Of a stretch of DNA of 38,989 nt, positions 5,603 to 35,909 are shown in pieces. The translations under genes were made by a program, and so were the position numbers. The notes beneath the pieces were generated by a model. It did not search any database. It was not told where the DNA came from and worked only from the letters and a program-made list of their open reading frames with translations. Position 1 is the stretch's first letter; each line of letters opens with the position of its first letter. This DNA is from Fonticula-like sp. SCN 57-25. Taxonomy: Eukaryota. Location: positions 1 to 38,989 of the forward strand of contig MEDX01000032.1 of assembly GCA_001724245.1 (NCBI GenBank), given 5' to 3'.

Positions 5603-8600
5603 ATGGCGCGCTCCATGTCCTTGATGCCTCGAATTCTGCCAGGGCCGCAACATCCACAGAACAAAGGTAATGATCTTGGCGGCCGCAACGTGCTTTTTTA
5701 ACAAAATTTTAATAGGAGCCGCTGATTGGGGCCCGCAGGGGTTTGTGGCGCATGGCTCGCATGCTCTCGTTGTCGTCACCGATTCCGCGTCCCTGCAGGT
5801 GGTACAGGTCCTGGACGGGCATGGGTCGCTCATCGTTTGCGTAAAGTGGTACGCAAATGTGGCAATTTTACGTAGCGATGCTAATATTGATCCAGGGCGC
5901 TGGATGACTCTTTCCATGATGTCTATCGTCCGTATGCCCTGACATTGGCTTCGGCCGATGCGCTGGGTCGCGTGTTTATATGGCATCTGCACAAGGCGCG
6001 TCTTTTAAATCATGTCCGCGCACATTTTCTGACTTTTCTTTTTCGTTTTAGACGCAGCCAGTGCTCCGGCTGCCGAGCGCGGGGCGCGGCGTCGTGGATC
6101 TCGCGTGGCAGCCCGGCTCCCCTGACGTGCTCGCCGTCGCCTACGCCCCCGGGATGCTGTCCCTCTTTGACGTCAAGCTGAATCAAAAGATATCCGTTCT
6201 TTCCTTTCATGTTTTATTGTTGAATTTTTGTTTTTTCTCTATTGAATTTCGTGTTTTCCTTTCTTGATCGTGCGCAATCCCCTTTTTTTTTTCCTTGACT
6301 CGCCCCTCACGTCTGGAGCCGCGAATTCTCTGGCGACGTCCTTCGCTTCCAATTCAACCCCTTTGACAGCAGCAGCGGCTTTCTCCTCACCGCGCAAGGC
6401 GTCATGTTCAACCTGACCGGGATCGGCAACACGCGATCGCAAGACATGCAGATCCGCAAGTTTCAGGTCGGCGCCGATCGCGGCGATGGCGCATCGCCCG
6501 GCCAGATCCCCGCGCCGTCAACGCCACGTAAGCGCGGCGCGCTTTCAACACCAAACGAGCTTTACCAGTCATGTGACTTTATCGCTTCTTTCTACTCGCC
6601 AAACGAGCGCGACATGATCCTGCTCGTGACGCGATCCGAGATCCTCTTTCTGGACGTCAAGGTGAGCCAGATCGTGTCGACCATTAGTGGCGAGCCACGT
6701 GGTCCGCACTTGGTTGGCGCGCTGCTTTGCCGTGAACATCCTGACTTGCTCGTCACTCTCAACGAGGCCGGAAGGTGCGCAGTTTTGCTATGAAAATCGA
6801 CCTTTTCGGCCCTTTTTGAACCATTTTTGCCCATTTTTGACCAAATTTTGACGTTTTTTGACCCATTATTAAACCTATTTTCTTTTTTCTAACACAATTT
6901 CCTTTCCATTTTCAGCATTTTAATAAGAAATCTTGGCGACCAAACCGGCCGCCGCGGCTTCTCCATCGTTGCTTCTGGTGACATTGGCCCTCGCCGCCCC
7001 GACCGTTCCTTTCAACTATTAGGAAATCCGCTTGATGACCTTGAATTCATGGCACTAGCAACAGACGGTCGCATGTACGCATACAAATATCTATTTTTAG
7101 ACTTTATACTTGATGCTATACTTGATGCTATTATGCTATACTTGATGCTATACTTGATGCTATAATTGATGCTATTATGCTATTGATGCTATTATGCTAT
7201 AATTGATGCTCAAATTGATGCTATTATGCTATACTTCAAGCTATAATTGATGCTATATTTGATGCTAATATTGATGCTTTTATGCTGTAATTGATGCTAT
7301 AATTGATGCTATATTTATGTTATTATGCTATAATTGATGCTATAATTGATACTATTATGCTATATTTGATGCTATTATGCTATTGATGCTATAATTGACG
7401 CTATTATGCTAAAATTGCTATAATTGATACTAAAAATACTTTTTTTCTAGCTATAGTTGGACACACAACTTGCCCGACCGTCTACTAGTAACTGGTTATT
7501 ATGAAGGCCTATGGTCATCCGTCACGTGCCTCTCCATGAACACCCCCCCCAAATCCACCCCAGACTCCCCCCCCCTCCTATGCGCCCTCGGCACACGCAC
7601 AGGCCACATATTCATACTAAATTTATATACTTTTTCCATTGACCGCTGCCTTGCCGCACATGATCTCCCTATTCGCGGCCTATCATGGATTGACACGTCA
7701 ACAGTTTTGTCATATGCGACGGATGAAGTCGGAACGAGGCAGTATAGGAATTCGGTTAGGATTGCTGACGTCAGCACTGGGAGGATGAGGGAGGTGAGGA
7801 GTGAGAAGAATAAGGATCAGTGGGCGATTAGGGGGGTGAGTTTGTCGTGGAGGAGGCAGTATATGGTCGTCTTATTTAAGGATGGGTACGATTATGAATA
7901 TGAATATGAATATGAGTATGTGTATGAGGGTTGTTGATGACGTTATTGATTATTGTCGTTGATGAGTATGAGTATTATTTGAATATGAGTATCATTGATG
8001 AGTATCCATATATGTGTTATTGATGAGTATTATTGATGAGTATGAGTCAGTCATTGATGAGTATGAGTATGAGTATGAGTATGAACATGAACATGAACAT
8101 GAACATGAGTATGAGTATGAGTATGAGTATGAGTATGATTATGATTATGAAATTGTGTATGAGTATGATGTGTAGTATGAGTGGTATGAGTATGAGTATG
8201 AACATGAGTATGAACATGAGTATGAGTATGAATGAGTGGATATGAACATGAGTAAGAGTATTATTGATGAGTAAGAGTATTATTGATGAGTATGACTATC
8301 ATTGATGAGTATGAGTATGAGTATCATATATGAATATGAGTAATATTGAGCATTATTATAACTATTAATAGCTCAACCTCTAACACTAACACATTCCCTC
8401 TAGTCCAATGGAACTCTGGGACATTATCACATTCACCCTCCTCAAACCCGCCTTTTCCTCCCTTTCAATCCCAACCGCCCTTTCAATCTCATTCAGCCCA
8501 ATCGCACCAATCACAGCCACGCAAACCTCACCCATATTAACCTCATTAAGACCATCTTCATCTATTCGCAAATCACGCAACCACGTGGCCTTTGATACGT

Positions 8601-11600
8601 CATCATCAATGACGTCATCATTATTAAATACGTCATCATCAATGACGTCATCAATGACGTCATCATACCATGGTTCATCCTACCATGGTTCATCATATGG
8701 TTCATCATCTTCAGTATTGTACCCAGAATCCCTTGCGATCCTATTGGCTGATGGCACCCTAGTGGGGTGTACCATAAATGGGTGTCTGGTGACAGAAGAC
8801 TATAGGCTGTCACGTGGCGGTGCTGCAGCGAGTGGTGGGGTAGAATGGGATAGGAAGGAGAGTGTGGTTGTGGGGGGGGATGGGGGGGGGAATGTGTTTT
8901 TTTATCACGTGGGGCAGTCGAGAATAAAGTACGAAGAGGGGTAATATGGGGTAATAATGGGGAAGAATAGGGAATAATAGGGAATAATAGGGAATATTGA
9001 TGCTTTTTTATGTTATTTATACGTATCTTTTTGTCTCTATTTTGTGTCAATTTTGATAGATTTTCATGATTTTGTGTCATTATAGATACTTTTTTGATAC
9101 TTTTTCAATGATGTTTTTATATCATTTTTATATCATTTTCTCTCTCTTTTCTTCTCTTTTCTTCCCTTTTCTCTCATTTTTCTCTTCTTTTTCTCCCTTT
9201 TCCACCCCCTTACTAACCCCATAATAGATCATTTTCCACCCCAAATTACGGCGAAGTTCGCAAAATCCGAAGCTCACCTTCCGGCCGTTCCTCTCACCGT
9301 TTCCTTATCCTTTTTACACGTGGCCTCGGCCTATTCGAAGGCGGCCGTTTCGAATGTGCCGCTTTCCTTCCATTTGCTGACTCATCAAATATGAGTACCT
9401 ATAGTGTTAATGTTTCATTGGATGAAGTGAAACAGAGTCCGAACAAGATGGGAGTTGGGGGTGGAATTGGGGGTGGAATTGGGGGTGGATTGAAAGAGAA
9501 GGAAAAGATGCAGTTTGGGTATGAGGCATTGAGTGTGGTGGATGTCGAGTGGGTTTCATTAGACAGGATTATTTGCCGTACGAGGGGAAAAATGGGTGAA
9601 AAATGGGTGGAAATGGGTGAAACATGGGCTTTTTAGGTGAAAAATATTGTTTTTTGGTGCAATTTGGTACATTTTGGTGCATTTTTGGTGAAAATTGGTT
9701 CATTTTTGATGTATTTTGACTATTTTGTTGTTGACAACTGTGATCATTTTATGACCATTTTGATGTCATTTGTCTCATTATTGATACAATTTTGATGCAA
9801 TTTGTCTCATTTTTACACACTTTTCATATCATTTTCACACCACTTTATCTTCATTTTCATATCATTTTCCCTATTAACTCTTCTCTTTTCCTATTACTTT
9901 CCTTATTACTTTCCTAGTAATGGGTGATGGAAGTGTTCGCCTTATGGACAGCGACCTTCGCCGCGCCGTTTCGCCCCTTCTTTCCTATCCAACCAATCGC
10001 CGCGTCCAATCACTTTCCCTCCTTCCTAATAAGGACGCATTCACCCTCAAGACTCTGCTCACGTGCCAGCCATGGCGAAATGGTGAGTCACCATTATTGC
10101 CTAATAAGGCAGATTCATTGCTGTCATTGTCGTCGCTTTTCTCGGAAATTGGGGAGGAAAGTGTCCACGTGGACATTGATGTTGATATGGCGGAAGGTGA
10201 GGAAGGAAAAGCACAACATGGCGCCAATAATGAGGTACGACTATGGATAAAAATCTAAAAATAGTATTTTTGGATCCAACTGACATGGATTAAAAGGACC
10301 ACTTGTCATCATTACTTATGTTTGCTGGACGTCACGTGCCGCCACGTCATCTTGCCTTATTGAGCGCCCCCATAAGTGTCGCCGATCGCGCCGTCCAAAC
10401 AGCGCGCCTATTTGGTGACGTGGCAGAAGTCTCCTTTTGGCGATTGGCACTTTTCTATCTTGATTACGTCACCCAACACCCCGAAGAAATGCCACCGATC
10501 GCGCCTTCAAATGTCCACGTGGCCATACCAAATGATGACATCAGCATGGAAAATTTTTCCCTTTCGCCGCTCAAATCTCCCGCGCGATCGCGCCGCGCTT
10601 TGGCCGCCGAAGCCACGTCATCAGCAACACTCGAAACACGACGTCTGACGTCACTGATGACGTCACTCAACCCCACAAATGACGATAAAAATCACGTGAC
10701 TAATTCAACTTCACTCCCGCCATATTTTGATATGTTTCGGCCTGCAAAACAACTTCGCCCATTTCATATAAAACGTCTCGAAACGCGCGAACGCGTCTCA
10801 TTATCATATGAAAATACGCAACAATTAACAAGTACAAGTATGATGCTTGGCGAGCATGAAAATGCGATAAGATTGTTGTTGGAGACGCCGTCGAATACGG
10901 TTAATTTTAGGGGTGATGCTATGAAGGCGTGTTTGATAGCGGCGTTGTGTTCGCCAGAGACATTAGAGTCAACGGTGCGTGGGAAGTGATATAGGGAAAG
11001 TGATATAGGGAAAGTGATATAGGAAGGGAAAGTATATGTTATGGGTTGTACTGTGATGATATATAGTACATGATATGATATGATATAGTACATGATATAT
11101 GATATATTGTGGTGATAAAGTACATGTGGTATGATATAGTACATGATCCATCATATAGTGTGGTGATTTAGTACATGATACATGTGGTGATATAGTACAT
11201 GATATAGTATGATATAGCACATGATATAGTATGATGAAGTACATGATATATTGTGATATAGTGTGTTGTATTCGTATTGATCACGTCATAGATGTTCTTG
11301 TTTTATGTTCTGATTCCATCTGATTCCCTTCTGATTTTGTTTTCTCCCTTCTGATTTTCCTTATTTCCTTCTGATTTCTCCTCTTCAGGTCCGTATTGTC
11401 GCTACTCGCTTCATGTCCAACAACGATCTCGACCAAGCCATCGATCTCCTCTGCATGCTCAACCTCGGCCTCACCGCCTGCCACCTCCTCCAAGATGATC
11501 ACCGCTGGGATGATGCCGCGCTCATCGCCAACTCAATCTTGACATCATCTGATCGCGCATCTGTTTTCAAGCGATGGGCAGATGATCTGGTTGAGGGGCA

Positions 11601-12272
11601 GGAGATCATTAAGGCTATTAATGTTTATTTGAGTATGGGTGATTTCGTGAATGTGATTGGCTTGTTGAGGGCGCAGGGGTGTAGTGAGATGGCGGCGGTG
11701 TTGTGGGGGGAGTGTGAGGAGAGAGGGATTACGAAAAAGTGGGATGGTACGCATAAGGGGAAATTGAGGAAAAGGAATATATTATGAATATATTTGATAT
11801 GAATTTGATCTTATTTGATATGAATTTACTCTTTTGATATGAACATGTTTGATATGATTTTTTAATATGAACATGTTTGATATGAACATGTTTGATGTGA
11901 CTCTTTTGATATGAACATGTTTGATATGTTCTTTTGATATGAACATGTTTGATATGACTCTTTTGATATGAACATATTTGATATGATTTTTTGATATGAA
12001 CATGTTTGATATGCTTTTTTGATATGAACATGAACATGTTTGATATGAATTTGCTCTTTTTTGAACATATATATGCGTTTATCTTCCTTTCTTCTTCTTT
12101 ATTCCTTTCTAAATATGTTATAGATTCAGCGCAGTTACTTGCAAGGGATGTCTGCAATGGATATGCAGACTATTTAAGCGAGCTCGGATTGGCTCAAATC
12201 GCCGCATCTTATCGGTCACGTGCTGAAGAGATCGGTGCATCGACAATGCAGGACACGCCAAGTGACATGTAG
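5603..12272 (+). CDS. WDR11: WD repeat-containing protein 11 ortholog, 13 exons: 5603-5666, 5716-5848, 5896-5995, 6052-6189, 6311-6774, 6916-7074, 7451-7885, 8404-8928, 9228-9577, 9918-10234, 10297-10974, 11389-11746, 12124-12272
   Basis: Spliced protein begins PQNKGAADWGPQGFVAHGSHALVVVTDS...LASADALGRVFIW and ends with AIRLLLETP...DAMKACLIA...ACHLLQDDHRWDDAALIA, matching remembered WDR11 N- and C-terminal motifs. All junctions keep frame. Confidence 0.92.
6190..6310 (+). other. U12-type (minor spliceosome) AT-AC intron in WDR11
   Basis: Starts ATATCCGTT, branch site TTCCTTGAC at 6291-6299, ends CCTCAC. Removal joins KLNQK|VWSREFSGDVLRFQFNPFD in frame. Confidence 0.9.
7100..7440. repeat. Intronic degenerate minisatellite, ~8-12-bp TGATGCTATA(C/A)T / TATTATGC units
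   Basis: Visible tandem array filling WDR11 intron 7075-7450. Confidence 0.9.
7890..8345. repeat. Intronic hexamer microsatellite (ATGAGT/ATGAAC/ATGAAT)
   Basis: Tandem array in WDR11 intron 7886-8403. Confidence 0.9.
10985..11270. repeat. Intronic degenerate repeat (GTGATATAGGGAAA, then ATATAGTACATG-like units)
   Basis: Visible in WDR11 intron 10975-11388. Confidence 0.8.
11785..12070. repeat. Intronic minisatellite, TTGATATGAACATGT-like units
   Basis: Tandem array in WDR11 intron 11747-12123. Confidence 0.9.
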
Positions 12273-12769
12273 TACATTGCTGTGACACGCCTGCAGGCAC
12301 ATTTGATTCATGTTGTGTTGGTATGGGTATGTGTCTTTGGTCATATTTGGTACAGCATTGTGACAGGCATGTAGACATGTAGTCAATGTCAATGTCCTTT
12401 GTGTAGGTTGATATTCAGTACTGTAACATCTATTCAGTATTGTTGAATATGGCCACATGGCCATGGTAGTGTTCCAATGTTCTTCTATTAGCTATGCAAA
12501 TGTGTTCTTTTGTATATTTCTTCACATTCCGCATATAAAGTGAAACATAATGTAATATTCAAAGAGAAAGCACATATGGTCAATGTAATAGAAAAAAAGT
12601 ATGAAAAATGCGCGCGAAACACGCAAAGAAAAACACCCAAAAGAGACTTTTTTCGCGTCTTTCCCGCCAAACAACCCTTAAAATATCCCTAATAACTCCC
12701 TAATTCAATTGAAATTGACCAACATTTTTATTGCTATTTTTGGTATTTCTCGTCATCTCCATCATCTTC

Positions 12770-17068: not shown

Positions 17069-17741
17069 CGCAACGTCTTTCCCCCCCTTTCAGGCTACCG
17101 TGCGTGGGCCGACGTGGATCGGGGAACAACAAAGCACAGTTGATGATCATCAGATACTGGTTAGATAGTGATTAAGGGGTGGGATCACGGCCGGATCAAG
17201 GAGGCATATTGGGCCAATATTGGCACACGGGAGCAGACAGTTAATATAATAAATGGTAGCAGTATATGTGTTTATAAACACCAGTATTTGCCAAAGAAAG
17301 TGCTTTGTAGGGTTGCCATATCATTTGTTGGAAAAAGTGACCTTTCTTGGGCACACGTGACCTAACTGAAGTGACTTTTCCTGGACTTGTACGTATGGCC
17401 ATACAAGAACAACGTCATTTTATAATAAAACATGACGTGTGTATGCACGCACTTTACTGCTTACGTAACCAATTTAAAGTATGGCGATGTCTGCCAATGT
17501 CTGCCAACATACGGGCATACGTAATTAGGTACTTGGAAGATCCCTGTTTCTACAATTTGCGGTAATCAGCCGACCAATCAGGATCGAGCAACTTTTTGTT
17601 GTCGACATTCATGTCTGCCTACGAAGTCCAAAACGGGCAGGCCTAGGTCGGTTAGTTGGCGAATAGGTGTATATAGCAGAGTTTGTAGCCACAGCGATCT
17701 GCAGAGAGACTTTGCAGGCGGCGGCCACCTCTCTACCGAGA

Positions 17742-20471
17742 ATGTCGAATGTGGATATTTGCCGCCGTTTTTTAATACAAGGGCAGTGCACCACTGTGGG
17801 ATGCACGAGAGCCCATAAGCTCAGCGAACTTTCGAGACCGATCCATCCGCCAAAGACGTTGTCGCGGAATAAGATCTCGCTATGCAGGTACTGGTTGCTG
17901 AATGAATGCAAGAACACGTCTTGCGCGTACGTTTGCCTCTTACCGGACAATTTTTGAAGGCTAACTTGGCGGGATTTTTGCTCAGGTATGCGCACGCGTG
18001 TATCGAGCTTCAGTGGTACGATGCTCCAAACCGCGGGAGCAAGGATTCGCTTTGCACGTACTGGCTTGCTACAGGACGTTGCCACGTACAAGGTTGTCAG
18101 AGCGCGCACAGTTTGCAGCAGATGCACGGCATCGAGGTACGTTTTTCCCAACTGTTTTTTGATTTTCCCGCCCGATTTTAACATGCGCATGTCAGCTCGC
18201 CCTCCCGACATGTTCCGAATGGTTCCTTCGCGGCGTCTGCTCTCGCGGCGCGCGCTGCACCGCCCAACACACAATAGGCGTACGCCTCTCTTTTGTGTAC
18301 CTTTCCGCTGCTAATCTCTTTGACTCTAGCTTCGCGCATCGGCCATCGCCGCAAAAGAGGAAGGCTACCGGTTACCGCTCTCCTCCTACTACCAGTCAAC
18401 GGATCGCACCGTAAACAAGGCCATTGACGGCTACTACCGCAGCGGCCTCACGAGCACGCTCGCCCTCTTCTCCGAACTGATCAAGGAAATCTCCCGCTCG
18501 GCCGACACTCTTTTAACATCAACCTCGATGCGCGATTGCGCCCGCTTCAAATCGACCCTCGAAGAATTTCTCGGCTACACTAAAGTAGAGTCTTACGAGT
18601 GCCGACGCGTTCTCACCGACCTCCGCTTCCTCTTTGAACACCTTTTTTTGGAACTCACGCAGCTCGCCGGCGTCGAAATTGACCGCCCCACTTCGACCCC
18701 ACTACTACTTCGCGTCGTCCAGAGCATTGACGACGTCGGACTTTCCCGCTTTGTCAAGACAACAGGAATGCAACTTTTAGACATTGTAAACCCCGCCGTC
18801 CACGCGGACACTGACGTCAGCCTTCAACACGTCAACCGCGCCTGCTTTCTCTTTGTTGAAATTGTCATGCTTTTAAAGGCAATGCGCATCGACCTCGACG
18901 TCCGCTCACGACTTGCGGCCATTATCGAGACATCCACGTGGTCAAAACCTGCGATTGCCGACCATCTTTTCCAGTACATTGAAAAGTCGCCGGTGCGCAT
19001 CACCACCTTCAAGATGGACGCGGCATCAAGGAATACTATTGTCCACGTGGCGGCAATGAATGGTCATTTTGCCGGCGCGGCCGAGTTTTTGCGCCGCCTC
19101 GTGGCCGAGCCATATGGCGTACAAGCTTTATCTGAAACGAACGTGATTGGCTGGACGCCCATATTTGTCGCTGCTCGTGTCGGCGCTCTCGATGCAGTCA
19201 AGGAAATGCTGACAATTACGGACGATATTGAATCGCAGCGCGATCCACATGGCCGTAATGTTCTTATGGTGGCGCTGATGCCGGCGGATGATGGAGTGCT
19301 AATTGACCCGAAGGGCCGCGTGGCGACAGCCAAATATTTGCTGACACACTGCAGTGCGCTTGCTCTTGCCCAAGATCATGATGGAAATACCGCATTGCAT
19401 TATGCGGCAATGTTGCAATCGAGTGATCACGTGGCCGCGCCGGCCTTGTGGGATTTGCTAATTTCACATTCGAGGTCGAATGTTACTAATTTGGAGCGCA
19501 AGAGGGCGGTTGACGTGCGCAATGACGTCATGAGAATGCAGCCGGGAATGAGTCAGAATGGAATGCAGCAGCAAGGTCACGTGCAGCAGCAAGGTCACGT
19601 GCAGCAGCAAATGATGACTCAGCAACAAGTTCCTCAGCAGCAAACGGTGACTCAGCAACCAGTTCCTCCGTTGCATGTTCAGAATGCAAGGCCTCAGCAG
19701 CAAACGATGACTCAGCAGAACGCCCAGCCAAATGTTCAGCGTCCAAGACCTCAGCAGCAAACCGTGACTCAGCAGCAGCAAACGGTGACTCAGCAACCGC
19801 CGCCTTTTGTGCCGCTATCAAGGCCTCAGCAAGTCAACTATCAGCAAATGTTTCACTCTCAGCCAATCACATCGCAGCAAGCCGCCGCTCAGCCAATCAC
19901 GTCGCAGCCGCCTGGTCTTCAAAACCCAAGCAATGTATTCCAACAAGGACGCCACGTGGCCCCATCTGCCCCACTTCGCCAGCCGTTACAAAGGAAAACG
20001 TCGGACAATTTCAGCCCTTTTAGCGCCAACGACACTGATTGGGAGGCGGACGCTTTTGATGACACGCACATTTCGTCTCAAAATTCGTCTCAATCGTCTC
20101 AACAATCGTCTCAAAATCCATTTCAAAATTCGTCTCAAGCAAGTCACGTGCGCCTTTCACCCGCGGCGGGTTTATTGGCACCCGGCTCGTCATCCTCTTC
20201 CCCTGAACGCGTCCCTATCGATCGCCCAACTGTCCACGTGACCAATACCCACGTGACCAATACTCACGTGACCACCAATGGTCCCGTTCCGCAATTAGAA
20301 CAAACGTATGCTGGATATTTGACTGATAAGGAAAAGCGCCCAGAACTGGAAGAGAATATGGCAATGCTAGTGAGACTTGGATATGATCGTGATATGGTTT
20401 TGCAAGCATTATTAGTTGTTGGTAATAGGAGAGATGAGGCGCTTGCATTATTGGAGAGCTTTTCATCATAA
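17742..20471 (+). CDS. Multidomain protein: 4 CCCH zinc fingers, helical (HEPN/DUF4145-like?) domain, ankyrin repeats, Q-rich linker, C-terminal UBA-like domain; introns 17927-17985, 18137-18195, 18280-18329
   Basis: Fingers CRRFLIQGQCTTVGCTRAH, CRYWLLNECKNTSCAYAH, CTYWLATGRCHVQGCQSAH, CSEWFLRGVCSRGARCTAQH. Ankyrins NTIVHVAAMNGH, GWTPIFVAARVG, GRNVLMVA, GNTALHYAA. UBA-like MLVRLGYDRDMVLQALLVVGNRRDEALALL. Splicing joins in frame to ORF 18528-20471. Confidence 0.85.
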
Positions 20472-20792: not shown

Positions 20793-23639
20793 TCACCTTC
20801 CCGATATGGCAAAAAGCATATTTGCCGCCGTTTGCGCGAGCGGCGTCGGCGCCATTGCCAAACTGAGCAGCAAATCCTCATAGGGCTCAATGATCTGCGC
20901 ACCAATCCGATCGCCGCAAAGCGCACCAATCGCATTCGCCGCCAATGCCGCGTGTTCAAGTGACGTAGGCACTCTTAATACCAGTGAGGCCACGTGCATG
21001 AGCAGAGGAATGGCAAAAGCAGTGCGGGAAATTATGGCGGGAAATGGGGCTGGGTAGGCGCAGAGCGCGCATAGACCAATCAGAGCGGCTTCATAGGCAC
21101 GTGAGTCGCGCGAAAAGACACTGTCGGCGACACGTGGCCATAAAAAGGCGCATAAGGTGCCCATGAGGTGCGCCACGAGGCGCTCTTTTTCGTCCAATGA
21201 GAGGCCGTCGGATATGTATGGCTTGTTTTCGTGGAGTAGAATGAGTTGTGCTAGTGATTCGATCGCGCAGACATTGACCCATGGCGAGTGCTGATTGGTG
21301 GGAGAAGATGATGTAGAAGGTGAAAAAGGGGGTGAAAAAGGGGTAGGGTCGTTTAGGGCGTCGCGGACAAGGCGCGAAAAGGGGGTTTCTATCGAGGGAT
21401 CGGCCCAATTGGATGACAAAAAGACGCGAAGCGCATCCGAAGCAGTCGTTCTTGATGACGTCATCGTGGCATTTGAAGTATCTGATGACGTAATTGATGA
21501 CGTAATTGATGACGTAATCACATTATTCAATGATGTATTTTCTTCCTTGACTTCCTTGATTGATACTGACGCACTTGAATCCCCTGCCTCCACCTTGATA
21601 CCAACCTCATTGGCCAATTTCGATGACGTGGACAATGCTGATTGGCCACGCAAAAGCTGCGCGCGAACGACCGCCGAAATGCTGACAAGGCCATTCAAAA
21701 GACCCGCGGCAAGTTCGGTGGAACGCAATCGAAGATCGCCCGCGAGCAAGCTTGATAGGTGAACGGCGGCGTCACGATGACAGGGGCGTGAACACGTGAC
21801 CTCGCGAAGCAGAAGCCAAGGAAGGACCGCGTGATTGGCCATGCGGGCGCGGTGGTGGCGGGAAAGTGCGAGGTTGCGGAGAATGAGCCAGCAGGACGAA
21901 ATTATGCCTTCAGTCGCATCGCCAAACACATCTATTGGAAGAAAAATGAGGAAGAAAACGTGTTAAAAGTGAGAAAAATGGTTGAAAAAAGCATGAAAAT
22001 GACACAAAATGACACAAAAAAGTGCACAAATTTCGATGAAATTGACCAAACAAGGCACGAAATGTCACAAATTACCATCAAATTCACCATAAAAATACGC
22101 ACCCTTTACGCCTTCCTTCTCCAATGACACCAACGGTGACATCAGCAAATACTTTGACGGCGCCCTCTCCTCACTACACCCCTCTCTCCTTCCCGCCAAA
22201 ATCTCCACGACCCCATCCAACAACGCCGGATTTCCACCAATCGGAATCTGTTCCGCCGCCGCGTCATTCGCAGACAGCACCGTCATCACATTCAGCGCCC
22301 ACGTGACATCCACAAGCAGACTCGATCGCAGGCACAAACCAACGCGCGCATAGCTCACGTGACCAAGCGACTCTGGGCGGATCGCCGACAGCGACGACGT
22401 GGTCGCGCGAACAAGAATGGAGGCCGCGTCCAATGGGATGCCGACGGAAGGTGCTGACGTCATCGCTTGGGAGAAGAGCGTGCTCAAGTTGTGTTCGGGC
22501 GCGGCGGGCGGCGCAGCAGAAGAGGAAGAAGTTGTTATAGAGGCGCCTCGGCGGCCGCCGGCGGGCGCGGCGGACGAGCGCGGCGGGGGGGCGCCCGCGG
22601 CGGCGCTCATGTACTGGCTGTACCGCGGGTGGTTCTGGCCGGGCGGGCGGCCGGGCGGGCGCGACGGCGGCTTTGGCGATTCAGTGGGCGCGCGGGAAGT
22701 GGCAGGAGAAGAGGAAGAAGTGTGCGGCAGGGGGCGCTGAGAAGGGCTCCAAAACTGCTGCTGCTGCTGAGCCTGTTGGAGTTGGTGAAGCTGCTGCTGG
22801 GAAAGCTGCTGGTGGCTCGGTAGCATTATCGTGTTCTGCTGCTGAGTTTGCTGCTGAGCTTGAGCTTGTTGCTGGAAGCGCTGCTGAAGAATTTGCTGCT
22901 GCTGAATCTGCTGCTGCTGCTGCTGTTGGGCTTGAATTTGGGGTTGTTGAGCCTGCTGCTGACGAGCTTGGAATTGTTGCTGCTGCTGGGCTTGAAGTTG
23001 CTGCTGCTGAATGCGTGCTGCTGCTTGGGCGTGCGCAAGGGCGGTGGCGTTCTGTGCTGCCGGGATCTGCGCGCCCATCCGCTTCTGCATGGCCATATAA
23101 TGCTTCTGGGCCTGGAGCTGCTGCTGCTGCTGGAGGGTTTGCTGCTGCAGCATCTGCATCTGCTCGAGAGAGAGGTGGCCAAGAGAGGGGCGCTGCGGCG
23201 GGTGGCGGGCAGCGGCGACGCCAGCGGGACGCGGCGAGGCGACACGAGGGGGGGCGATCTTTGCAGGCGCGCTGCTGCTGCTGGTGATGCCGCCAGTGAT
23301 GCCGCTGCTCGTTGGGCTGCTTGTTACAGTCATGTCTTGCCTGAGGAGCATCTCGTGCACTTGCTGCTGCAGCGCGCGCTGACGGCTCTCGACCTGCTGG
23401 AGCTGCTGCGCGGTGGATTCAGTCGCGTCGCGCGGCTGCGGCGCCGTCGTGATGGGCGCATCGGACGGGGAAGGCGGCGAAGCCGAAGATGCGGAAGAAG
23501 TGTCGGCCGTCGGCGGGGCCGATGCCGGCGCGTCTATTGAGGAGGGGTCGTTAGGCGTCTGCGTGATCGAGTCGATCCACGCTTGCTCATCGCTCGCAAA
23601 GAGCGGATCAAGGACAGGGCCTGACAACCCTTCGGTCAT
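20793..23639 (-). CDS. SWI/SNF ARID1/Swi1-like subunit (Q-rich N-terminus plus BAF250_C-like ARM region), no ARID domain seen; intron 22102-21932
   Basis: YARVGLCLRSSLLVDVTWALNVMTVLS and CWLILRNLALSRHHRARMANH resemble ARID1/Swi1 C-terminal motifs (LxSGLxxExxWAL; ILRNLS). Phase-1 GT-AG intron links the two ORFs. Confidence 0.7.
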
Positions 23640-23927: not shown

Positions 23928-23959
23928 CCACCCAGACGGGATCAGCATCAGCGCGGCAA

Positions 23960-26900
23960 ATGTCTGGAGATCACGAGGACGTCGAGGATGAGGGGATGGA
24001 GGTAGAGGAGAGCAACAAGGCCCCCACGCTCGTGCTTGACAAAAAGGCAGAGTCGTCGTTCATTCAGGCTTTCCGGGATCTTCCCGCCAAGGTCGACGAC
24101 ACGATCCGCCTCTTTGAGCGGAGCGACTTTTACACCGCGCACGACGATGACGCGCATTTTATCGCGCAGCACGTCTTCAAGACGACGACCGTCATCAAGC
24201 AGTTGGGCGGCGAAGGTTCGCGCGGTCTCGCAGGTGTCTGCATGTCGCGCATGCAGACGACATCCTTCCTCCGCGAGATGCTGCTCGAAAAGCAAAAGCG
24301 CGTCGAGGTCTACGTGATGGACCGCTCCAAGAACCGCTGGGTCGTCAAGCAGCGTGTACGCACAAACATTTTATTTTTATTGTACTTACTGTTCATTTTA
24401 CAGGGCTCGCCAGGCAATCTTCAGGCCTTTGAGGACATTTTGTTTTCGTCGGCATCGACGAGCGAGTCGGCCGCATCCCCCGTCGTCATCGCGATCAAGG
24501 TCGGCGCGCAAGCGGCCGACGGCACGCGCCCCGTCGGCGTCGCCTTTGCCGACGCCACCGCCCGCTCGATCGGCATGTCCTCTCTCACCGACACTGAAAC
24601 CTTTGCCGCCCTCGAGTCGCTCGTCGTCCAGCTTTCCGCGCGCGAGTGCCTCCTCCCCGAGGTCGCCTCTGACGATTCCGCCGACGCCTACACGCACAAA
24701 AAAGTGCTCGCTCTTCTCGACCGCTGCGGCGTCGTCGCCACCCCCACCAAGCGCTCCCTTTTCAACACCAAAAACGCCGAAGCCGACCTCTCGCGCCTCC
24801 TCCGCACGCCCGCCGCCCTCAACGTCGCCGCCCACACGCAGCAGTCGCTCGCCTGCGCCGCCGCCCTCGTGGCCTTTCTCGACCTCATGTCGGACGACGC
24901 AAACCTCGGCCGGTTTGCACTCTCTGAATTCGACGCGACCGCCTTTATGCGCCTCGACGCCTCTGCCGTCAAGGCGCTCAACATTCTGCCGCCGCCCGGC
25001 GTCCCCGCCAACAGCACAAGCTCGCTGTACGGCCTTTTCAACCGCTGCCAAATGGCGCAAGGCAGCCGCACACTTTTGCGCGTCTTGAAGCAACCTCTTG
25101 TCGACGTGGCCGCCATTGAAGCTCGCCAAGACATTGTTGAAGCCTTTTTCTCCGACGCCGAGCTCCGCACCGCCGTCCGCGACGAACACCTTCGCCGCAT
25201 CCCCGACCTTTCCCGCCTCGCCAAGCGCTTTGAGCGCCGCCGCGCGACCCTTCAAGACACTGTCCGCCTCTACCAAGCCATTGCAGTCCTCCCCGCGCTC
25301 GCCGACGCGCTTTCCCGCCACGACGGCTCGCACGCCGCCCGCCTTTCCTCCACCTACACTGCCCCAATCAAAGAGTGCGCCGAAGCCCTCGAGCGCTACC
25401 AGCAGCTCATCGAGACCACCGTCGACCTCGAGCGCGTCCGCGACCACGAATTTGTCGTCCGCGCCGAGTACGACGAAGCGCTCGCTGCCCTCGGCGAGCA
25501 GCTCGCCCAAATGCGCAAGCGCGAATTCCCGCGCATTCTCAGCAAGGCCGCCGACGACCTCGGCCTCGAAGCGCACAAAAAACTAAAGCTCGAGCACAGC
25601 GCCGTGCACGGCCACCACCTTCGCGTGGCGCGCACCGACGGGTCAAAGTTGCGCGGCAAGCCGCTCTACACTGAGCTCAGCACGCAAAAGCAGGGCGTGC
25701 TTTTTACGACGCGCGAGCTGCGCGCGGTCAGCGAGCGGTATGAAGACGTGTCACAAAAGTACGCGTCGGCGCAGGCGGACGTTGTCAAGCAGGTGATTGA
25801 TGTGTGCGCGTCGTACTGCCCGGTGATTGAGACGCTCGGGGAAGTGCTGGCGATGATGGATGTTATGGCGGCGTTTGCGGATGTGGCGGCGCACGCGCCG
25901 GCAGAGTATGTGAGACCCAAGGTGGTGGGGAAGGAGAGTGGCGAGGTGACGTTGGTGGAGGCGAGGCATCCGTGTATTGAGGCACAGGATGGTGTGGCAT
26001 TCATTCCAAACGACATTGCTTTGAGTCACGCTGGATTTGGTACGCGTTGATAATAGTTTGTTTTGGGAGGGCTGTGTTTTTTTTTGCAGCATTTGTGACA
26101 GTCTTTTCATTGATTTTTGATTGTTTTTGACTGTTTTTGACTGTTTTTCAATGACGTTACACTGTTTTCCACTGTTTTTTTGCATTTTCCCACACCTTTT
26201 CCCACCCTTTTTTCTTTTTCCCGCCACTTTTTCCTTCTTTCCCAAACCGTATTCTGACCCTTTTCCGATAGATGTTGCGCTGGTAACTGGCCCCAATATG
26301 GGCGGCAAATCCACTTTTATCCGCCAAATCGGCGTTCTCGTCCTTCTCGCCCAATGCGGCTCATTCGTTCCCGCCACTTCCGCCACAATTTCCGTCCGCG
26401 ACGCCATCCTCGCCCGCGTCGGCGCCGGCGACAGCCAGCTCCAAGGCGTCTCCACCTTCATGGCCGAAATGCTCGAAGCAGCCGCCATCCTTCGCACCGC
26501 ATCACGTGACTCGCTCGTGATCGTGGACGAGCTTGGTCGCGGCACTTCGACGTATGACGGTTTTGGCCTTGCTTGGGCCATTGCAGAACACCTCGCGAGC
26601 GCCATAAAGTGCACTGCCCTTTTCGCGACGCACTTTCACGAGCTCACAGCCATGGCAAACGAACATAGTAACGTGCAAAATTTGCACGTGACCGCGCACG
26701 CCACAGAAAAAGACATTACATTGTTGTACAAGGTGCAGCAAGGCCCGTCGGATCAGTCGTTTGGTATCCACGTGGCCAAGTTGGCGCACTTTCCGGACAC
26801 GGTTGTTGCGCTGGCCAAGCGAAAGGCGGATGAGCTGGAAGATGAAAGTGGCGGGAAAGTGAGGCGCGTTGAGGCGAGTGAGGAGGAAAGAGAGGAGGCG

Positions 26901-27041
26901 GATAGGGAAATGGAAGAGTTTTTGAAGAGGGTGGCGGCGGTGAAGAATGAAAAAGAGTTGCCGGAAAAGGTCAAAGTGTGGGGGGAGGAGCTTAGGAAGA
27001 GGAATAATCCGGTTATTCAGAGTATTTTGGCGGAATTGTAA
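23960..27041 (+). CDS. MSH2: DNA mismatch repair protein MSH2; introns 24356-24403 and 26040-26271
   Basis: [59 protein letters not shown], Walker [62 protein letters not shown]. Confidence 0.97.
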
Positions 27042-28032: not shown

Positions 28033-28259
28033 CCTCTTTTTGTGCATGTTTTATGCGTATTTAAAAGGGATTATCTCTGAGTTGCCGGCCGAGCCATGCC
28101 TGTTGACTTCGTTTATATTTCCCGAGAGCCTTTTCAATTATGTTTTCAGTGTCTTTTCCTTTCCTTTCACCCTCTTTTCTAACGCATTTTCACAGGTAAA
28201 TGACCTCTTCATTTCGCATATTAATACACTACACATATCCCCTTTCACCTCACATGTGC

Positions 28260-30539
28260 TCACACGGCCGACTCCTCGACCAACCTGACATGCGCCATCG
28301 GCACCATTCCCTCCTTGCCATTCAGCTCGGCAATCCACCAGCCATCGTCCAGCCCTTTTACACCATATTAGCCCATCATAAACAAAAGCAATAGAGCGCA
28401 CCTTCTGTCTGAACAATCTTCATCGTATCGCCCTTTCTAAACATGAGCTCGTCATCATAGCCAGGCTCGCTGTTGTGCAGCGCCACCGCCAACCGACCAA
28501 TAAGCGACGACACTTGACGCTCAACCTTGTGTTCAGCGGCCACGTGGTCATGTTCAGTAGTCACGTGGTCATTGTCAGCAAAAGTTTGTTCAGCCTGATC
28601 TTGAGCCTGATCTTGAGCCTGATCTTGAACCTGATCTTGAACCTGATCTTGAGCGTGATCTTGAGGCTGATCTTCAGTCACTTGATGAGTATCAGCACCT
28701 TCATGGTTATCACCCTGATGACCATCAGCAGCTCCTTCATGGCCATCAACAACTGCCTTTGGCGGCGTCCAAAGCGGAATGACCGGCTCTGCCTCTGCGT
28801 CGGCCGCCTCTTCCTCGTCGGCCCCGCCGGCATCTTCGTCATCATCTTCGTCATCTTCGTAATCTTCGGTAATGTCCACGTAACGGCACGGAAAAATGCC
28901 TTCCTTTCCGTCGCGTTCGCGGCGGCCCAGCCAATGGCCGTTGGCCGGTCGGTCAATGACGAGGATGATTTCGTCCTTTTGGATGTGCAGGCCGTCCTCG
29001 TCGTAGGCGTTGGGGGCGAACTCGCGCGTGCAGACGGCGCGGGCGACGGCGGAGCGGAGGGAGGAGGCGGAAGAAGAAGTGGCGGGTTCGGCGGTGGCGC
29101 GCATCGGTGAAGAGGCGGCTGAAAAGTGTGTCAGAGAGCTGGAAAAGTGGCAGGAAAAGTGGCAGAAAAAGGAGAGAAAATGCACAGAAAATGAAAGAAA
29201 TGCGACACAAAAAGCAAAAAATAGTCATAAAATGAACAAAAAAGAGTCATAAAATGAAATAAATACAACGTAAAATACATAAAACAGTCATGAAATGTGC
29301 CATTTTCCCCTTTCCCTTTAGTCCACATACCCTTTGGGTCAGGGAGCCTTGACTTTGTAGCGAGCTGCAGGTGGTACATCCACCTGTCCATAACCACCGG
29401 GCTGTCTGCCGACAAAAAGTACGTCCTTGCGCCCTGCCCCGCCACCTTGAACCCATTGGTCATGATCTTTGTCGCGGTGGACACTTCGCATCCCGGCATG
29501 CTGATCTTGCCGAGCGCCGCCTCCTCATCAGGCGTCTTGAAATAGTACACGCAAAAAGTCTTTGTGAGCACGAACCACCGCCGTTTCCACGACTTTACGA
29601 CTTCGCCCTGCTTTGTGAGCCAGCCACTGAGCACCGGGTCTTCCTGCGCGAGGCTGCGCGCCGACGGCATCGGCTCGGGCGTCCCGGGGCCGAGGCCGAT
29701 CGACGAGCTCGATGAGCTCGGGCTGATCTGGGGGACGGCGGCGGCGGCGGCGGCGGCGGCCTTGCGGCGGGGGGCCCACGAGCGCGCGCGCGCGAGCATC
29801 GCCGTCGGCGACGAGATCGAGCCAAAAGTCTGCTTGCGGGGGGCATCAGATGGCGCGGCATCGGGAGTGGCGCCGATCGGGGGGGCGGAGAGGATCGGCG
29901 CGGCGGGCTGTGCGGCGGGTTGGGGCGGCGTGGGGATCGTGCGAGAAATGACGGAGCGCGGCACCCAGCCGGTGAGGCCGGGGAGATGCGCGTGCTCGGC
30001 GTAGATCCACTGGCTGGCATCGCGCGTCGTGGGCGAGGGAGGGGGGATGATGAAAAGCTCATCGTTCTCAGTGACGGGCATCTCGTCCGCATCGTCAGAA
30101 GACCATGTGGTCGCCACCTAGGAAAAGAAAGAGAGCGCGTAAGAAGCCGCAACAAAAGGGAAAAGATGGCGCACGAGGCGGCGGAGGCGGCTGCCAGGGC
30201 TGGGCGGCGGCGACGAAACAGTGCGAAGCACGTCAATCTGAGTCATGAGAATGCGCTTGCCGTTCGCTTCCGTGATGCCCATCGATGACATATTCGCGTC
30301 CGTCAGCGTAAACAGATGCACGCCGTCAATCTCATTGTCTACAGAAAAGGCAAGATGAGCGCATCGGACGTGGCGCCCCATAGTGTAAACACACCTTCAA
30401 AAACAGGCGCATGCACAGCAAGGCCAATGTCCTTGAGCCACGCGCACACCTGCGACACACTCCACCCTACTTGCATGTTAGAACACGCACAGCACCCATA
30501 AAAGCGAGAAACAAGGAACGTACGCGGCGCGTCCTCCAT
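28260..30539 (-). CDS. Signalling adaptor, SAM-SH3-PH-SH3-SH3; 6 exons
   Basis: SAM: WSVSQVCAWLKDIGL...NEIDGVHLFTLT. SH3: DEMPVTENDEL...GWVPRS. PH: GWLTKQGEVVKSWKRRWFVL...MDRWMYHL. SH3: LHIQKDEII...WLGR...GIFPCRYV. SH3: ELMFRKGD...DGWWIAELNGKEGMVPMAHV, then TGA at 28262-28260. Confidence 0.85.
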
Positions 30540-30951: not shown

Positions 30952-33900
30952 CTAGTCGAAAAAGTATAAACTTTCCCTCACTTCACTCACATCAAACTGC
31001 CCCCGCTCCGGCACCGGCGCGATCTGCAGCGGCCGCCATCCCGCCGTCCCCGAAAACCGAATCGCCTCCTGGCCCTCGCTCGACGGCCGCTGGACACCCT
31101 CAACATATGCAAGCGACGCGTCATCAATCGCCTTCTCGAAAACCACGTGGTCCTTGTAGCGCTCGAGGAATTCATTTCGAAGATTGTCCATGATTGGCTG
31201 CGAGTGCAGCGCAATAAACTGCTCGCGAATGGACTTGTTCATTTCGTCGACTGTTGCCGCGTGCGTCCAGAAAGAGTCGTGCACGCTGGCAAAGACGAGC
31301 GGCGGCGACACTTCATTGGTGCAGGCGAGCGCGGTCATGAGCATGTGCGTAGAGTCGAGCGAGTGGATAAAGTTGGGCGGGAAGGCGGATTTTTGGCGGT
31401 TGACATTGACTTGTTTTTGGTGAACTGGGTCGTCAACTTGAATGCTCTGAAGATTCGTGTAAATCTGCGAAAAGTCAGTAAAATTAGACGGAAAAACATG
31501 CAAAAGTAGAAATGAAGCAGCAAAAGTACAAGAACACGTACAAGAACAAGTACAAGAATACTATCAATACCAATACCAATACCAACAACATTACCAACAA
31601 CATTACCAACAACATTACCAACAACATTACCAACAACATTACCAACAACATTACCAACAACATTACCAACGACATTCCCAATACAAAATATTTGCCACTT
31701 TTCGCACCTGCTTCATTGACTTTTTCCTGTAAGGCTGCACGATCGGCAAGTCCAATGGCGTCGTCCACACGACGAGCGTTTCTCCCTGCTCGCGCACATC
31801 CTTCTTCGTCGCCGCCACCGAGTACTCTTCCGCGACATTCGCCGCCGGCCGCGACCGCGCAATCTCGCGCGCCGTATCCGTCAGCCAATTCTGAATTTCC
31901 CGCGCGCCGTTAAACATCGTCCCAAGCGACTGGAAAACAAGCCTTGTAAGGTAAACCGACGTCTTATATATAAGCTCTTCCGGCACGACATTTCCTTCGA
32001 CAAGGCGGTTCTCAATCTGCTGACGCGCGCCGACAAATGTCACGCCGTACACGTTGGTCATGACGGTCTGCTTGACAATCTTGCGCGACACTTTGCCCTG
32101 CATGTGCCGCGCAATGTCACGTGTCAGCGGGTCGCTCGCTTCGGCGGCGTCGCGGTCAACAAACTGGCTCACGACTGAAGCAACGGCGCTGTAAACGTCC
32201 TGGGGGATGTCCGACTTTACAAGATTGACAGATTCGGCGCCGAGACGGTCGCCGCCGAGCGCGGCATAATGCTGAAGGCCGTTGCAACTGCCGTCCTGGT
32301 GGACGGGGAGGGAAGACTGGAAGAGGAGAGGGTCGGGCGAGCGAAGGGCGGCGCCAAGTTCAAGGCAGGTGGCGAGAAGCTGCCAGGGGTCATCGCTCTT
32401 TTTCCACCAATCATTCTGTAGGGAAAAGGTTAGGAAAAAGCCAGAAAATGTGGTTAAAAGTACCAAAAGAGGGTCGTCGGCGACGGCAAAGATCTGGTCG
32501 CGCATTTCGTCCGCCTTGGCAACGCGGCCATCAAACGAAAGCCTTTTTAATGGTCAGCAAAAATAACATTAAATATTTGATTTCGTACTTGTCGTGGCCG
32601 GCGAGGTTGGCAAAGTGGACCTTGAGCCAGAAAAGTCCGCGCTCGCCGAGCGGCCTCGTCTCATTAAACGTGAGCAGACCGCGGCAAATATCCGAGCCGA
32701 GATGGTTCAGGTGCGGCGGAATCGGGTACGCGCGCCCGCGGAAATCGACCGTGTGCGGAAAGTAAATCGGCTGCGATTTAAACTGCGAATCATGGGCGTC
32801 AGAAAAACATTCTGACCAATAAAAATACGCACGGCATTGGCGATTTCGAGCTTGTAATTGACGTCGCAGCGGAGCGCGTGCAGCTCGCGGTTCTGCTTCT
32901 CGGCCTTGCGGCGCTGCACGACAACCGATCGGCGCTCAAAAGGCGTGACGTCATCACCGGTCGGCATCTCGGGCACTTCGACGTCGGTGCGCGCGGGAAT
33001 GTCGGCCACGCCGCCGCCGGCCTCCCACAACGCCGTCGCGACGTCCAGCACGCGGTCATTGACGCGCCACGCAGTGTGACCAAGCACGTCAAGCGCAGTC
33101 AGCACGCCAGTGAGGCGGCCTTTGCGCGAGGCGGCGCGCAGCAGCTTGAGCTGCTCGGGACTTTCCTTCAAGCGCAAGCACGGACCTGAAGAAATCAACA
33201 CGTTAGCAACAAAAATAAACCAATAAACATAGCATACGGTCGATGGTGAGGTAGCCACCCGTGTTGAAAGTGAGCCATGGGCGGGGCGGAACGAGCATGG
33301 GCAGCATGCGCGACGGGATAATGTCGCGTACGGATCTAATGTCTGCAAACATGCGCTCAACGTGCGGGTGCGGCTTGACGACGCCAATCTTTTTCCCGCC
33401 GACAAAAATGTATGAATGGTACCAGGCCGGCACGATGCGCTTGCTGTCCGGGTCCTTTTGCCCGCTCGGCGTGAGGTTGTGCAGCTCGAGCTTGGCGTGG
33501 TCGAGCAGGAACTGGAGCAGCACTGCGCCGACGCGGACCTTGATGGCCACGGGCCACTTTGGCTGCCACGTGCCGAGCTCGTCCTGCAGCTTTGTCTGGT
33601 ACTCGCTCGCCATCTTGCGGACCTGCATGTTGAAAATCCTGCCAGAGCCCATCATCTGCTGGAACTTTGTCTCGTCAAGGTTGAGACGCTTGCGATGCCG
33701 CCGAAGGTGCATGCTGTTGTACGCATTTTCGAGCGCCTGGCCCATGCCGGCCATCGCGCGGCTGATCTTGATCGCGCCGACAACGCCGAGGTTGTACGAC
33801 GACATGAATTCGGCAAAGAGGGCGTCGAGGATCGTGTCGGGAGGCAAGAGAAGAAGGAAGGGGCCGTAGAGCTCGCGGCCGTTGCCGGGAACTTCGTCCT

Positions 33901-34997: not shown

Positions 34998-35909
34998 CGC
35001 GGCACCACGTGAGGGTACACGGCAAACTAACCTGCAACCCGAGCTGCAAACTGACATGCAATCTGGATTGCAAACTGGCAATCTGTGTGGCGGGGCAGAG
35101 AGCAGCGCGACGCCAGGTGACCCCGCATTGTCGGCGAAAAATATGGGACTGTGTTGTATAGAACGATTCCTGGGCCTATGCTGCGCTTGTGTACAAATGG
35201 CTCAACCGAATTGACGCCTTTTGAGCGCGGTAGAGGTCATGGAACACAGGTACCCCACAGCGAGGGTACAGAGTGCACTATACACACCATATCACTTGGA
35301 TCCGAGCGACGAATGAAGGTGCTGTCCAGTGTTTTCGACTTTAGGGCACAATAGACCTGCTCAAAAATACGATCTTGCTATTGATTACGATTTTCAGGTG
35401 AGATTAGGAGGAATTCTGGTTCCCGTAACCCAGATTCGAAACCCAGATGTCGGTACAGCATCCATAATTGTATTGGCACAGCGCATGTTGCACTGAATAC
35501 CAAATGACTGAGTATGGCCATGGTATGAGAGCGACTACTCTAGAGCAAATGGACCGGGTTTGTAAACTAGAGCGATCACCATCTGGCATCGGCACGTCAT
35601 GACACACACCGGCGAGCGCAGCCGAGCTTCGTACTACGGTACTCGCGCGCAGTCAAGATCAAGTATTGGGAAATGTCTCGCTCGTAAAACCTTGGCTGCG
35701 ACGCATGAACGCGCTATTTGTTGGCGTGGTTGTGCATTCCTTCAAGATGCCTGGATGTCGTGGACAGATGCACACGTAAAAACGCAAATTTGGCGGGAAA
35801 GTTTGTGCATCAATATTCATTATTCATTGTACAAATCCTCGTTCATATCATACATAATACTGTAATACCATTGAACACAGAGTGCCAGAAAATTAAAAAT
35901 TGATCTTGA

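Follow-up and report, generated by a model that had tools for sequence, protein, structure and literature searches.

Promoter words in exons beside long repeat introns of Fonticula-like sp. SCN 57-25

Background

Why should the coding DNA of a microbial eukaryote be loaded with the short words that its own genome places in promoters? The question is raised by contig MEDX01000032.1 of Fonticula-like sp. SCN 57-25 (assembly GCA_001724245.1), whose 38,989 nucleotides are called the window here. It is contig C32 of the assembly (G000 in our numbering), which holds 9.51 Mb in 749 contigs of an intron-rich genome. An earlier note on the window had reported an excess of E-box (CACGTG), cAMP response element (CRE, TGACGTCA) and E2F-type words inside exons and at gene 3' ends, and had proposed that a genome-wide process deposits or preserves such sites away from promoters, for example through bound factors shielding CpG from methylation-driven decay or through motifs that organise chromatin. 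We found that the excess is specific to one kind of domain, namely the exons adjoining long AT-rich repeat introns. What is new is that the pile-up of words and a strand skew form one pattern, that the words are the promoter words of this genome, that ordinary exons are near the null expectation, and that causes at the level of methylation or RNA can largely be set aside. From these sequence patterns we infer how the pile-up may have come about.

Word counts in the window

All 12 copies of TGACGTCA stand exactly where the earlier note had placed them, CACGTG, put at roughly 50 copies, occurs 54 times, and the E2F-type 8-mers number 15 (TTCCCGCC 10 and GGCGGGAA 5; the one listed near 21035 is at 21036). 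The three copies of TGATGACGTAAT reported in an ARID1-like gene are found at 21483, 21495 and 21507 and represent one 12-nt tandem repeat. The copies of TGACGTCA at 8610, 8643 and 8655 and those at 10646 and 10658 are likewise tandem, so that five CRE fall in two tandem groups and the 12 make 9 independent clusters. The first gene, a Cys-rich repeat gene (1..4640, minus strand), was said to contain about a dozen CACGTG as Thr-Cys codons. Its copies are indeed mostly Thr-Cys, the exact figures being nine Thr-Cys, two Thr-Trp and two intronic. Since its exonic copies number 11 against 6.7 expected (14 of 500 shuffles reach this number), most of them come from the protein, and the gene is outside the phenomenon.

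The excess in the window withstands both kinds of null model. There are 12 copies of TGACGTCA against 1.5 under a 4th-order Markov model, and 54 of CACGTG against 20 (3rd order) and 37 (4th order), with both-strand counts halved in these comparisons; under models of 1st to 3rd order no hexamer of the window ranks above CACGTG. In the window exons minus the first gene, with tandem copies collapsed, the counts were reached by none of 500 codon-aware shuffles for TGACGTCA (8 vs 2.0), CACGTG (33 vs 10.2), the E2F words (11 vs 2.1) or CCAATCA (14 vs 3.4), the last being a fourth word that the earlier note overlooked and the top promoter 7-mer of this genome. All 12 CRE and 49 of the 54 E-boxes are in modelled exons, 10 and 34 of them, respectively, in exons adjoining a long AT-rich stretch.

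The excess is thus real in the window, but the window is an outlier. We compared it with a sample of 99 stretches (882,891 bases, 9% of the genome), most of them chosen at even contig-number steps. The window has 308 CRE and 1385 E-boxes per Mb against 71 and 545 in the sample, and is about 4 times (CRE) and 2.5 times (E-box) denser than the genome. Exon DNA adjoining long AT-rich stretches takes up 13,631 of 26,497 bp (about half) in the window and about 10% in the sample. Over the whole genome TGACGTCA occurs 675 times against 77 for the reversed word, and CACGTG 5333 times against 3233 for its reversed control. Five sample stretches (L005-L008 and L011) were chosen with CRE positions already seen; despite this the CRE density is 71.4 per Mb in the sample and 70.9 in the genome. 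The sample keeps two foreign-looking loci, L068 and L079, which differ from the other loci in GC content (0.43-0.44) and CpG observed/expected ratio (about 0.7) and are possibly foreign contigs.

Excess in exons beside long introns

Genes were modelled with a self-written and self-trained hidden Markov model gene finder, which replaced a first three-class version that had passed over motif-rich exons. In the sample it gives a median intron of 53 nt and a donor consensus of GT-A/G-CG; C is found at +4 in 84% of the donors, and GC donors make up about 5%. Because hand-read exons of the window served as seeds for its skewed codon classes, the main tests leave the window out and sort exons solely by the length of the introns next to them. 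The long-intron set contains the exons adjoining an intron of at least 150 nt (191 exons, 60 kb, 45 loci), with copies at most 40 nt apart collapsed, and the ordinary set contains 1766 exons (511 kb). Of 14 long introns that the models place in the window, three (20370-20614, 23650-23825 and 27953-28195) are probably flanks, and the test was therefore repeated on a strict set of introns between two exons of at least 30 codons (118 exons, 31 loci, window excluded).

The four words together reach 1.67 per kb in the long-intron exons, close to 1.73 in intergenic DNA, against 0.34 in other exons. Under a synonymous-codon null the long-intron exons hold 78 CACGTG vs 41 expected, 43 YCACGTGR vs 18.5, 9 CRE vs 3.3, 16 E2F words vs 6.1 and 20 CCAATCA vs 9.0 (0-1 of 300 shuffles each), i.e. 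about 2-4 times the synonymous expectation and 3.6-7.3 times that of a codon-order shuffle. Ordinary exons match the same null for CACGTG (180 vs 180) and YCACGTGR (50 vs 54), which speaks against a genome-wide process, and meet or slightly pass it for CRE (17 vs 13), E2F (44 vs 28) and CCAATCA (53 vs 39), with control palindromes at 0.7-1.3 times expectation. What had been said of transcription-factor-type sites away from promoters does hold for the long-intron exons, beyond 4th-order Markov and codon-aware nulls. The strict set gives 35 YCACGTGR vs 9.0, 58 CACGTG vs 22.4 and 14 CCAATCA vs 4.5 (each 0 of 500 shuffles), 8 E2F words vs 3.0 (4 of 500) and 5 CRE vs 1.8 (12 of 500). With the five richest loci removed the count is still 26 vs 10.6 (0 of 500); 12 of the 31 loci have no site at all.

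Site density rises with the length of the flanking intron, from 0.28 through 0.42, 0.51 and 1.06 to 2.14 per kb, and is 2.34 where both introns are long. The long introns themselves contain few E-box and CRE words. Strong sites lie at a median of 435 nt from the intron centre, and the ratio to the null is 3-8 at every distance, smallest at the edge. Genes with long introns are longer genes. The codon bias in the remainder of their exons is no different (39 against 302 genes, p=0.88), nor is the motif load of their promoters (0.75 against 0.62 per 250 nt, p=0.42).

Promoter words and their specificity

The words in question, YCACGTGR, TGACGTCA, CCAATCA and TTCCCGCC, are promoter words in the sample. 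Divergent spacers contain 1599 CACGTG, 301 TGACGTCA, 1135 CCAATCA and 185 E2F words per Mb, against 247, 0, 198 and 124 in convergent spacers, and the words reach 2.55 per kb in 5' flanks against 0.77 in 3' flanks, so the excess reported at gene 3' ends finds no support. A local exception is the convergent spacer between the WDR11 and myosin light chain genes of the window, where three E2F-like words (GCGCGAAA, TTTCGCG and TTTCCCGCC) occur at 12640-12670; convergent spacers on average are not enriched. In tandem spacers CACGTG and CRE have a median distance of about 70 nt to the ATG. For comparison, an ordinary divergent promoter of the window (17069..17905, no strand assigned) carries CACGTGAC at 17354 and CCAATCA at 17574.

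Some further words were observed alongside. CAAACTG/CAGTTTG, a promoter word with 35 copies vs 13 expected in the sample, is repeated upstream of two window genes (27174-27195 and 35030-35090). Behind stop codons the leading word is TGTACA, a candidate 3'-end signal present in 85 of 338 flanks where 10 are expected, with AATAAA weaker (61 vs 29). Exons of the sample are poor in the AP-1-type word TGACTCA (5 vs 20, and 0 vs 2.6), whose copies in the window (19549-19792) come mostly from a Thr-Gln repeat.

The exonic excess follows the exact promoter words. In a single-substitution scan that included the window, YCACGTGR stands at 8.0 times expectation in long-intron exons, 1.0 in other exons and 11.8 in promoters, and none of its nine one-letter variants exceeds 1.9; CRE, CCAATCA and TTCCCGCC peak likewise, their best one-letter variants being at 2.2-3.0. 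The preferred flanks in long-intron exons, C or T, are those of the promoters. The lists of the 50 top 7-mers in promoters and in long-intron exons have nine words in common, whereas the promoter list shares 0 of 50 with other exons. The other ACGT hexamers GACGTC, TACGTA and AACGTT are not enriched in long-intron exons, nor is the promoter word TGCCCC (16 vs 19), and CAAACTG is enriched weakly.

The E-box excess is present in all three frames, and on the coding strand both orientations of the non-palindromic words are found. Genome-wide there are 262 pairs of YCACGTGR at most 30 nt apart against 3 for the control; since nearly all the listed pairs have unlike spacers, slippage is not their main source. 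Judged by these features, the words look like sites for proteins binding double-stranded DNA. Putative readers are encoded, as the genome has 17 bHLH and 11 bZIP domains (7 of the latter over the cut-off), E2F/DP and NF-YA; one bHLH has the basic region HNELERKRR, which we take to be of the E-box type.

Strand skew and repeat introns

The same exons carry a marked strand skew. Long-intron exons run from a C-rich start to a G-rich end, and long introns reverse this from a G-rich start to a C-rich end, on either gene strand, so that G prevails on the left side of an intron centre and C on its right side. The exonic switch from C to G falls around the words. The alternation in WDR11 has a period of about 800 nt. 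The intron skew grows with length, going from +0.62 to -0.49 in introns of at least 250 nt, and extends about 250 nt into the exons. Fourfold sites near such introns have C 0.21 and G 0.49 before the intron and C 0.60 and G 0.12 after it, against 0.42 and 0.36 in the reference. This shift is mostly a swap of C and G and not a change of C to T, and hence points to a local force that overrides codon preference.

The introns of at least 250 nt are repetitive, 27 of 35 containing a 9-mer at least three times, and infrequent, with 29 in 883 kb or about one per 30 kb. They also seem to change fast. Related strains in public sequencing runs differ by about 2-3% in exons. In strain X4 the long intron of the ARID1-like gene (21931..22102, minus strand) is replaced by another G-rich repeat, the X4 contig being anchored by 828 exon bases at 97% identity and diverging behind 21935.

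Effect on the encoded proteins

Most of the motif-bearing exons encode recognizable domains. Of those with at least 50 codons, 31 of 46 match Pfam, e.g. a myosin I motor, FAM91, tandem SH2 and WD40, and in these 31 exons 35 of 58 sites are inside the Pfam-matched stretch by a hand tally. The words are accompanied by a shift in dipeptides. Long-intron exons have 71 His-Val pairs vs 39 expected, and 47 of the 71 are written CACGTG (expected share 0.29) against 101 of 344 elsewhere (p=1e-8). Two of the CACGTG in MSH2 (26685 and 26769) encode conserved His-Val; the third, at 26503, encodes Ser-Arg (TCA CGT GAC) where human MSH2 has Thr-Lys, and in myosin I a His stands at a variable position preceding a mostly conserved Val, both of which are anecdotal. 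A separate case is sample locus L054, with 33 CACGTG in 10 kb and no skew oscillation; it holds an FG-GAP repeat gene, and its load is probably protein-driven.

Features of the window

Pfam confirms WDR11, the ankyrin-UBA gene, MSH2 and others in the window. The WDR11 gene (plus strand) displays the pattern in nearly every exon. Its exon at 7451..7885 (Beta-prop_WDR11_2nd, E 1.6e-11) has a C-rich start and a G-rich end, with CACGTG at 7523 and TGACGTCA at 7766, and is followed by an AT-rich repeat intron of 518 nt (7886..8403) with a G-rich 5' half and a C-rich 3' half. The next exon (8404..8941, ended at 8928 by the gene finder) is an open frame and has no Pfam match on its own; its cluster at 8507-8665 consists of CCAATCA, CCACGTGG and three TGACGTCA in a Thr-Ser-Ser-Met tandem insert, with CACGTG at 8811 and 8906 beyond. 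Two exons in 9228..10235 flank a 340-nt intron (9578-9917) and carry CACGTG at 9317, 10060 and 10166 and CCAATCA at 10006. The exon at 10297..10974 (TPR_WDR11, E 4e-5) contains the cluster of 10330-10700 with three CACGTG and two TGACGTCA, and two repeat introns of 414 and 377 nt within 10975..12123 flank an exon at 11389-11746.

The last exon of the ankyrin-UBA gene (18330..20468, plus strand; Ank_2 and UBA) has 13 strict sites, and the AT-rich flip from G to C behind it, called an intron by the gene finder, is most likely the 3' spacer. A second assembly, L100, matches 17467-21165 at 3698 of 3699 bases. On the minus strand, the last exon of the ARID1-like gene (20793..21930), named by the earlier note and with no Pfam match, contains TGACGTCA at 21456, the three TGATGACGTAAT, four CACGTG, two GGCGGGAA and four CCAATCA words; beyond the long intron described above, the 3' part of the preceding exon (22103..22500) has TTCCCGCC at 22190, CACGTG at 22300 and 22356, and TGACGTCA at 22455. 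The 232-nt intron and last exon of MSH2 occupy 26040..27040 on the plus strand. Two further minus-strand cases are an SH3-adaptor exon with its 212-nt upstream intron (28402..29330; CACGTG at 28541 and 28562) and the last exon and 243-nt repeat intron of a gene named from its sequence as a single-subunit RNA polymerase (30952..31707; CACGTG at 31144, TGATTGG at 31191 and GGCGGGAA at 31376).

The window also contains a myosin light chain whose features are closest to animal non-muscle regulatory light chains, a histone H3 variant with a divergent tail (15139-15533) that appears CENP-A-like, a gene of weak codon bias (37463-38784) that encodes a GxPGxGKS P-loop and is possibly of a mobile or effector-like family, and two TTAGGG repeats at 38891-38905, about 90 bases short of the contig end.

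Discussion

We tentatively suggest that proteins bound to the words protect them from a strand-biased process, mutational or of conversion, that acts locally. The bHLH-ZIP, bZIP, NF-Y and E2F proteins of the organism would bind the exonic words because chromatin adjoining the AT-rich islands is open. These domains would undergo strand-specific loss of C where single-stranded DNA is exposed through break resection or R-loops, with fast repeat turnover accompanying the loss in the introns. A protein-covered site would avoid damage, or would serve as the unbroken donor allele in repair. Sites that had once arisen would then be kept, and their number would ratchet upward without benefit, through synonymous choice first and then through tolerated amino-acid changes and slippage. 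The polarity of the skew is what would be expected of C loss on exposed single strands, and would fit the 3' tails of intron breaks and the non-template strands of motif-cluster transcripts alike. A comparable geometry is known from fission yeast, where breaks are less frequent on TGACGT and CCAATCA themselves and more frequent beside them (PMC4199369), and a C>N strand asymmetry has been reported around human break sites (PMC11922761). An intact-looking, multi-exon Spo11-like gene with open exon frames is encoded at L026:2031-3431, and its DLFY and Toprim-type motifs are presumably those of the Spo11 type.

Several observations weigh against this suggestion or limit it. Strong E-box or CRE sites at least 600 nt from any intron of at least 100 nt centre a flip of their own (+0.18 +/- 0.055, n=30, many values near zero), against +0.018 at 266 matched palindromes (p=0.01), which hints that the sites help to cause the skew; R-CACGTG-Y sites far from long introns centre no flip, and CCAATCR and E2F words there centre no clear one (+0.06 and -0.01). 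Real promoters share the words yet flip weakly (about -0.05/+0.05), and control palindromes in the strict-set exons are also at 1.2-1.6 times expectation. Sites that provoke breaks should be eroded by conversion, which is the hotspot paradox. Mnd1 was not found in the genome, the assembly of which is incomplete, and the gene models are our own. In strain X4, where coverage is patchy and 40 of 115 differences are listed, 0 of 29 listed differences fall in motif cores vs 1.8 expected. The two words shared with fission yeast are poor at predicting its hotspots (PMC4199369).

A more specific and rather doubtful version reverses the hotspot paradox: in break-prone gene-body domains a bound factor would block cutting of its own allele, gene conversion would drive promoter motifs into coding DNA, and repair of flanking breaks would write the C/G skew and grow the repeat introns. 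If this version were true, genes would be cut into units of about 800 nt and proteins recoded without benefit, in a eukaryotic counterpart of uptake-sequence drive.

The exonic words could instead be selected regulatory elements, i.e. duons, gene-body enhancers or barriers with which long-intron genes recruit promoter factors to stay open or to sustain transcription, the skew coming from two-way nascent transcription. We consider this possible, if on the unlikely side. The exact promoter words with their flanks, the homotypic clusters and the position of the 35 of 58 sites within conserved domains would all suit it, and the flip from C to G at isolated sites has the polarity of human promoter GC skew (PMC3787257). 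However, almost all WDR11 exons are loaded, unlike a discrete enhancer; long introns do without the 3'-end words of this genome on both strands (TGTACA is present in 5 of 72, with 3.2 expected, and antisense AATAAA in 16, with 36 expected); TGCCCC is missing from the enriched promoter words; and the regulatory sites of Capsaspora are proximal, with a deficit in gene bodies (PMC4877666). Codon preference is moreover lost in the same exons, and because the bias overrides it there we lean slightly towards the neutral ratchet over selected enhancers. Bidirectional cryptic transcription units with terminator-like introns were considered and rejected, as the long introns have no excess of 3'-end words. 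Replication initiation zones would make the AT-rich introns unwinding elements, with flanking factor sites aiding licensing and the skew left behind by forks or by initiation. Such zones would agree with the AT-rich cores, around which the skew flips symmetrically, and with about one intron of at least 250 nt per 30 kb, but the skew is gone about 250 nt from the intron edge and the WDR11 units recur every 800 nt or so, distances that are short for a fork-based skew, and we regard the idea as improbable.

The remaining explanations have much less in their favour. Shielding of CpG from methylation-driven decay, as the earlier note had it, draws on the CpG contained in three of the four words, on the lower CpG observed/expected ratio of long introns (0.73 vs 1.13 in short ones) and on one C5-methylase domain (PF00145, G000:C53:290-781). 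It fails because CpG is overall in excess (observed/expected ratios of 1.19 and 1.22 for window and sample) and because CCAATCA is enriched without a CpG. Codon-junction CpG in skewed exons with ACGT masked number 574 vs 544 expected, the CG/GC ratio is 0.65 in long and 0.77 in short introns, and neither the unenriched ACGT hexamers nor the fourfold shift fits such decay, so that we give it hardly any credence. The other option of the earlier note, motifs that organise chromatin, may still hold. PF12047 has no match in the genome and its control likewise has none; a single MT-A70 domain is found at G000:C41:7264-7620. A signal at the RNA level, by splicing enhancers or by fold-back pairing that aids the splicing of long introns, could explain the tie of the excess to long introns, whose ends are complementary in composition. 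It is very improbable, given that the words occur in both orientations, that only 2 of 85 strong sites are in the first fifth of exons, and that the two ends of an intron pair no better than ends exchanged between introns (37 of 72 introns better, p=0.43). An artefact of codon usage, tandem slippage, mis-annotation or assembly, which could be argued from the tandem copies, the protein-driven first gene, the three doubtful introns of the window and the seeding of the codon classes, seems to us barely plausible. The excess persists with copies collapsed, with the window excluded, with exons defined by intron length alone and with strict introns; the exons largely match Pfam, and they are also present in L100 and in strain contigs.

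Exonic factor sites as such are of a known kind (bioRxiv 10.1101/2021.09.06.459186). The present ones resemble duons and exonic enhancers in being factor-type sites within codons, on synonymous and tolerant positions, and differ from them in an excess of 2-9 times readable from sequence alone, a promoter-like density, the restriction to long-intron exons, the dipeptide shift and the skew flip, with binding and function that are putative. Two of the four words are identical to those of the fission yeast meiotic hotspots M26/CRE (Atf1-Pcr1) and CCAATCA (Php2/3/5); the parts of PMC4199369 and PMC6827382 drawn on describe no accumulation of the words there. Human gene-end GC skew and R-loops also tie G/C strand asymmetry to promoter-type sequence (PMC3787257), whereas the skew here is symmetric, recurs every 800 nt or so within genes, is weak at real promoters and spans introns that lack 3'-end words. 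In the nucleosomal signatures of yeasts, too, a palindromic asymmetry of bases leaves its mark on codons and amino acids (PMC5703254), but on the scale of one nucleosome and mainly in A/T, while ours covers several hundred bases, concerns C/G and is anchored on introns and motifs.

Bacterial DNA uptake sequences and HIP1 are exact short words that accumulate in coding DNA in all frames and bend amino-acid use; the present case differs in being eukaryotic, in involving four promoter words and in being restricted to domains. Searches of main texts, with most subscription journals outside them, turned up no account of promoter words limited to exons next to skewed repeat introns. A metagenome scan with the ankyrin exon returned 7 loci, namely L100 (identical) and six distant ankyrin matches at 26-41%, and no ortholog; a search with one WDR11 exon yielded no homologue of greater length among 175 candidates.

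Conclusions

In animals, whether exonic factor sites are selected or a by-product is disputed, partly since the signal is weak and confounded. In this genome the signal is large, can be read from sequence and is internally controlled, as about 90% of the coding DNA is near the null, and it is accompanied by a strand bias that can be measured and by introns that change fast. Polymorphism among strains could by itself separate selection from a neutral ratchet.

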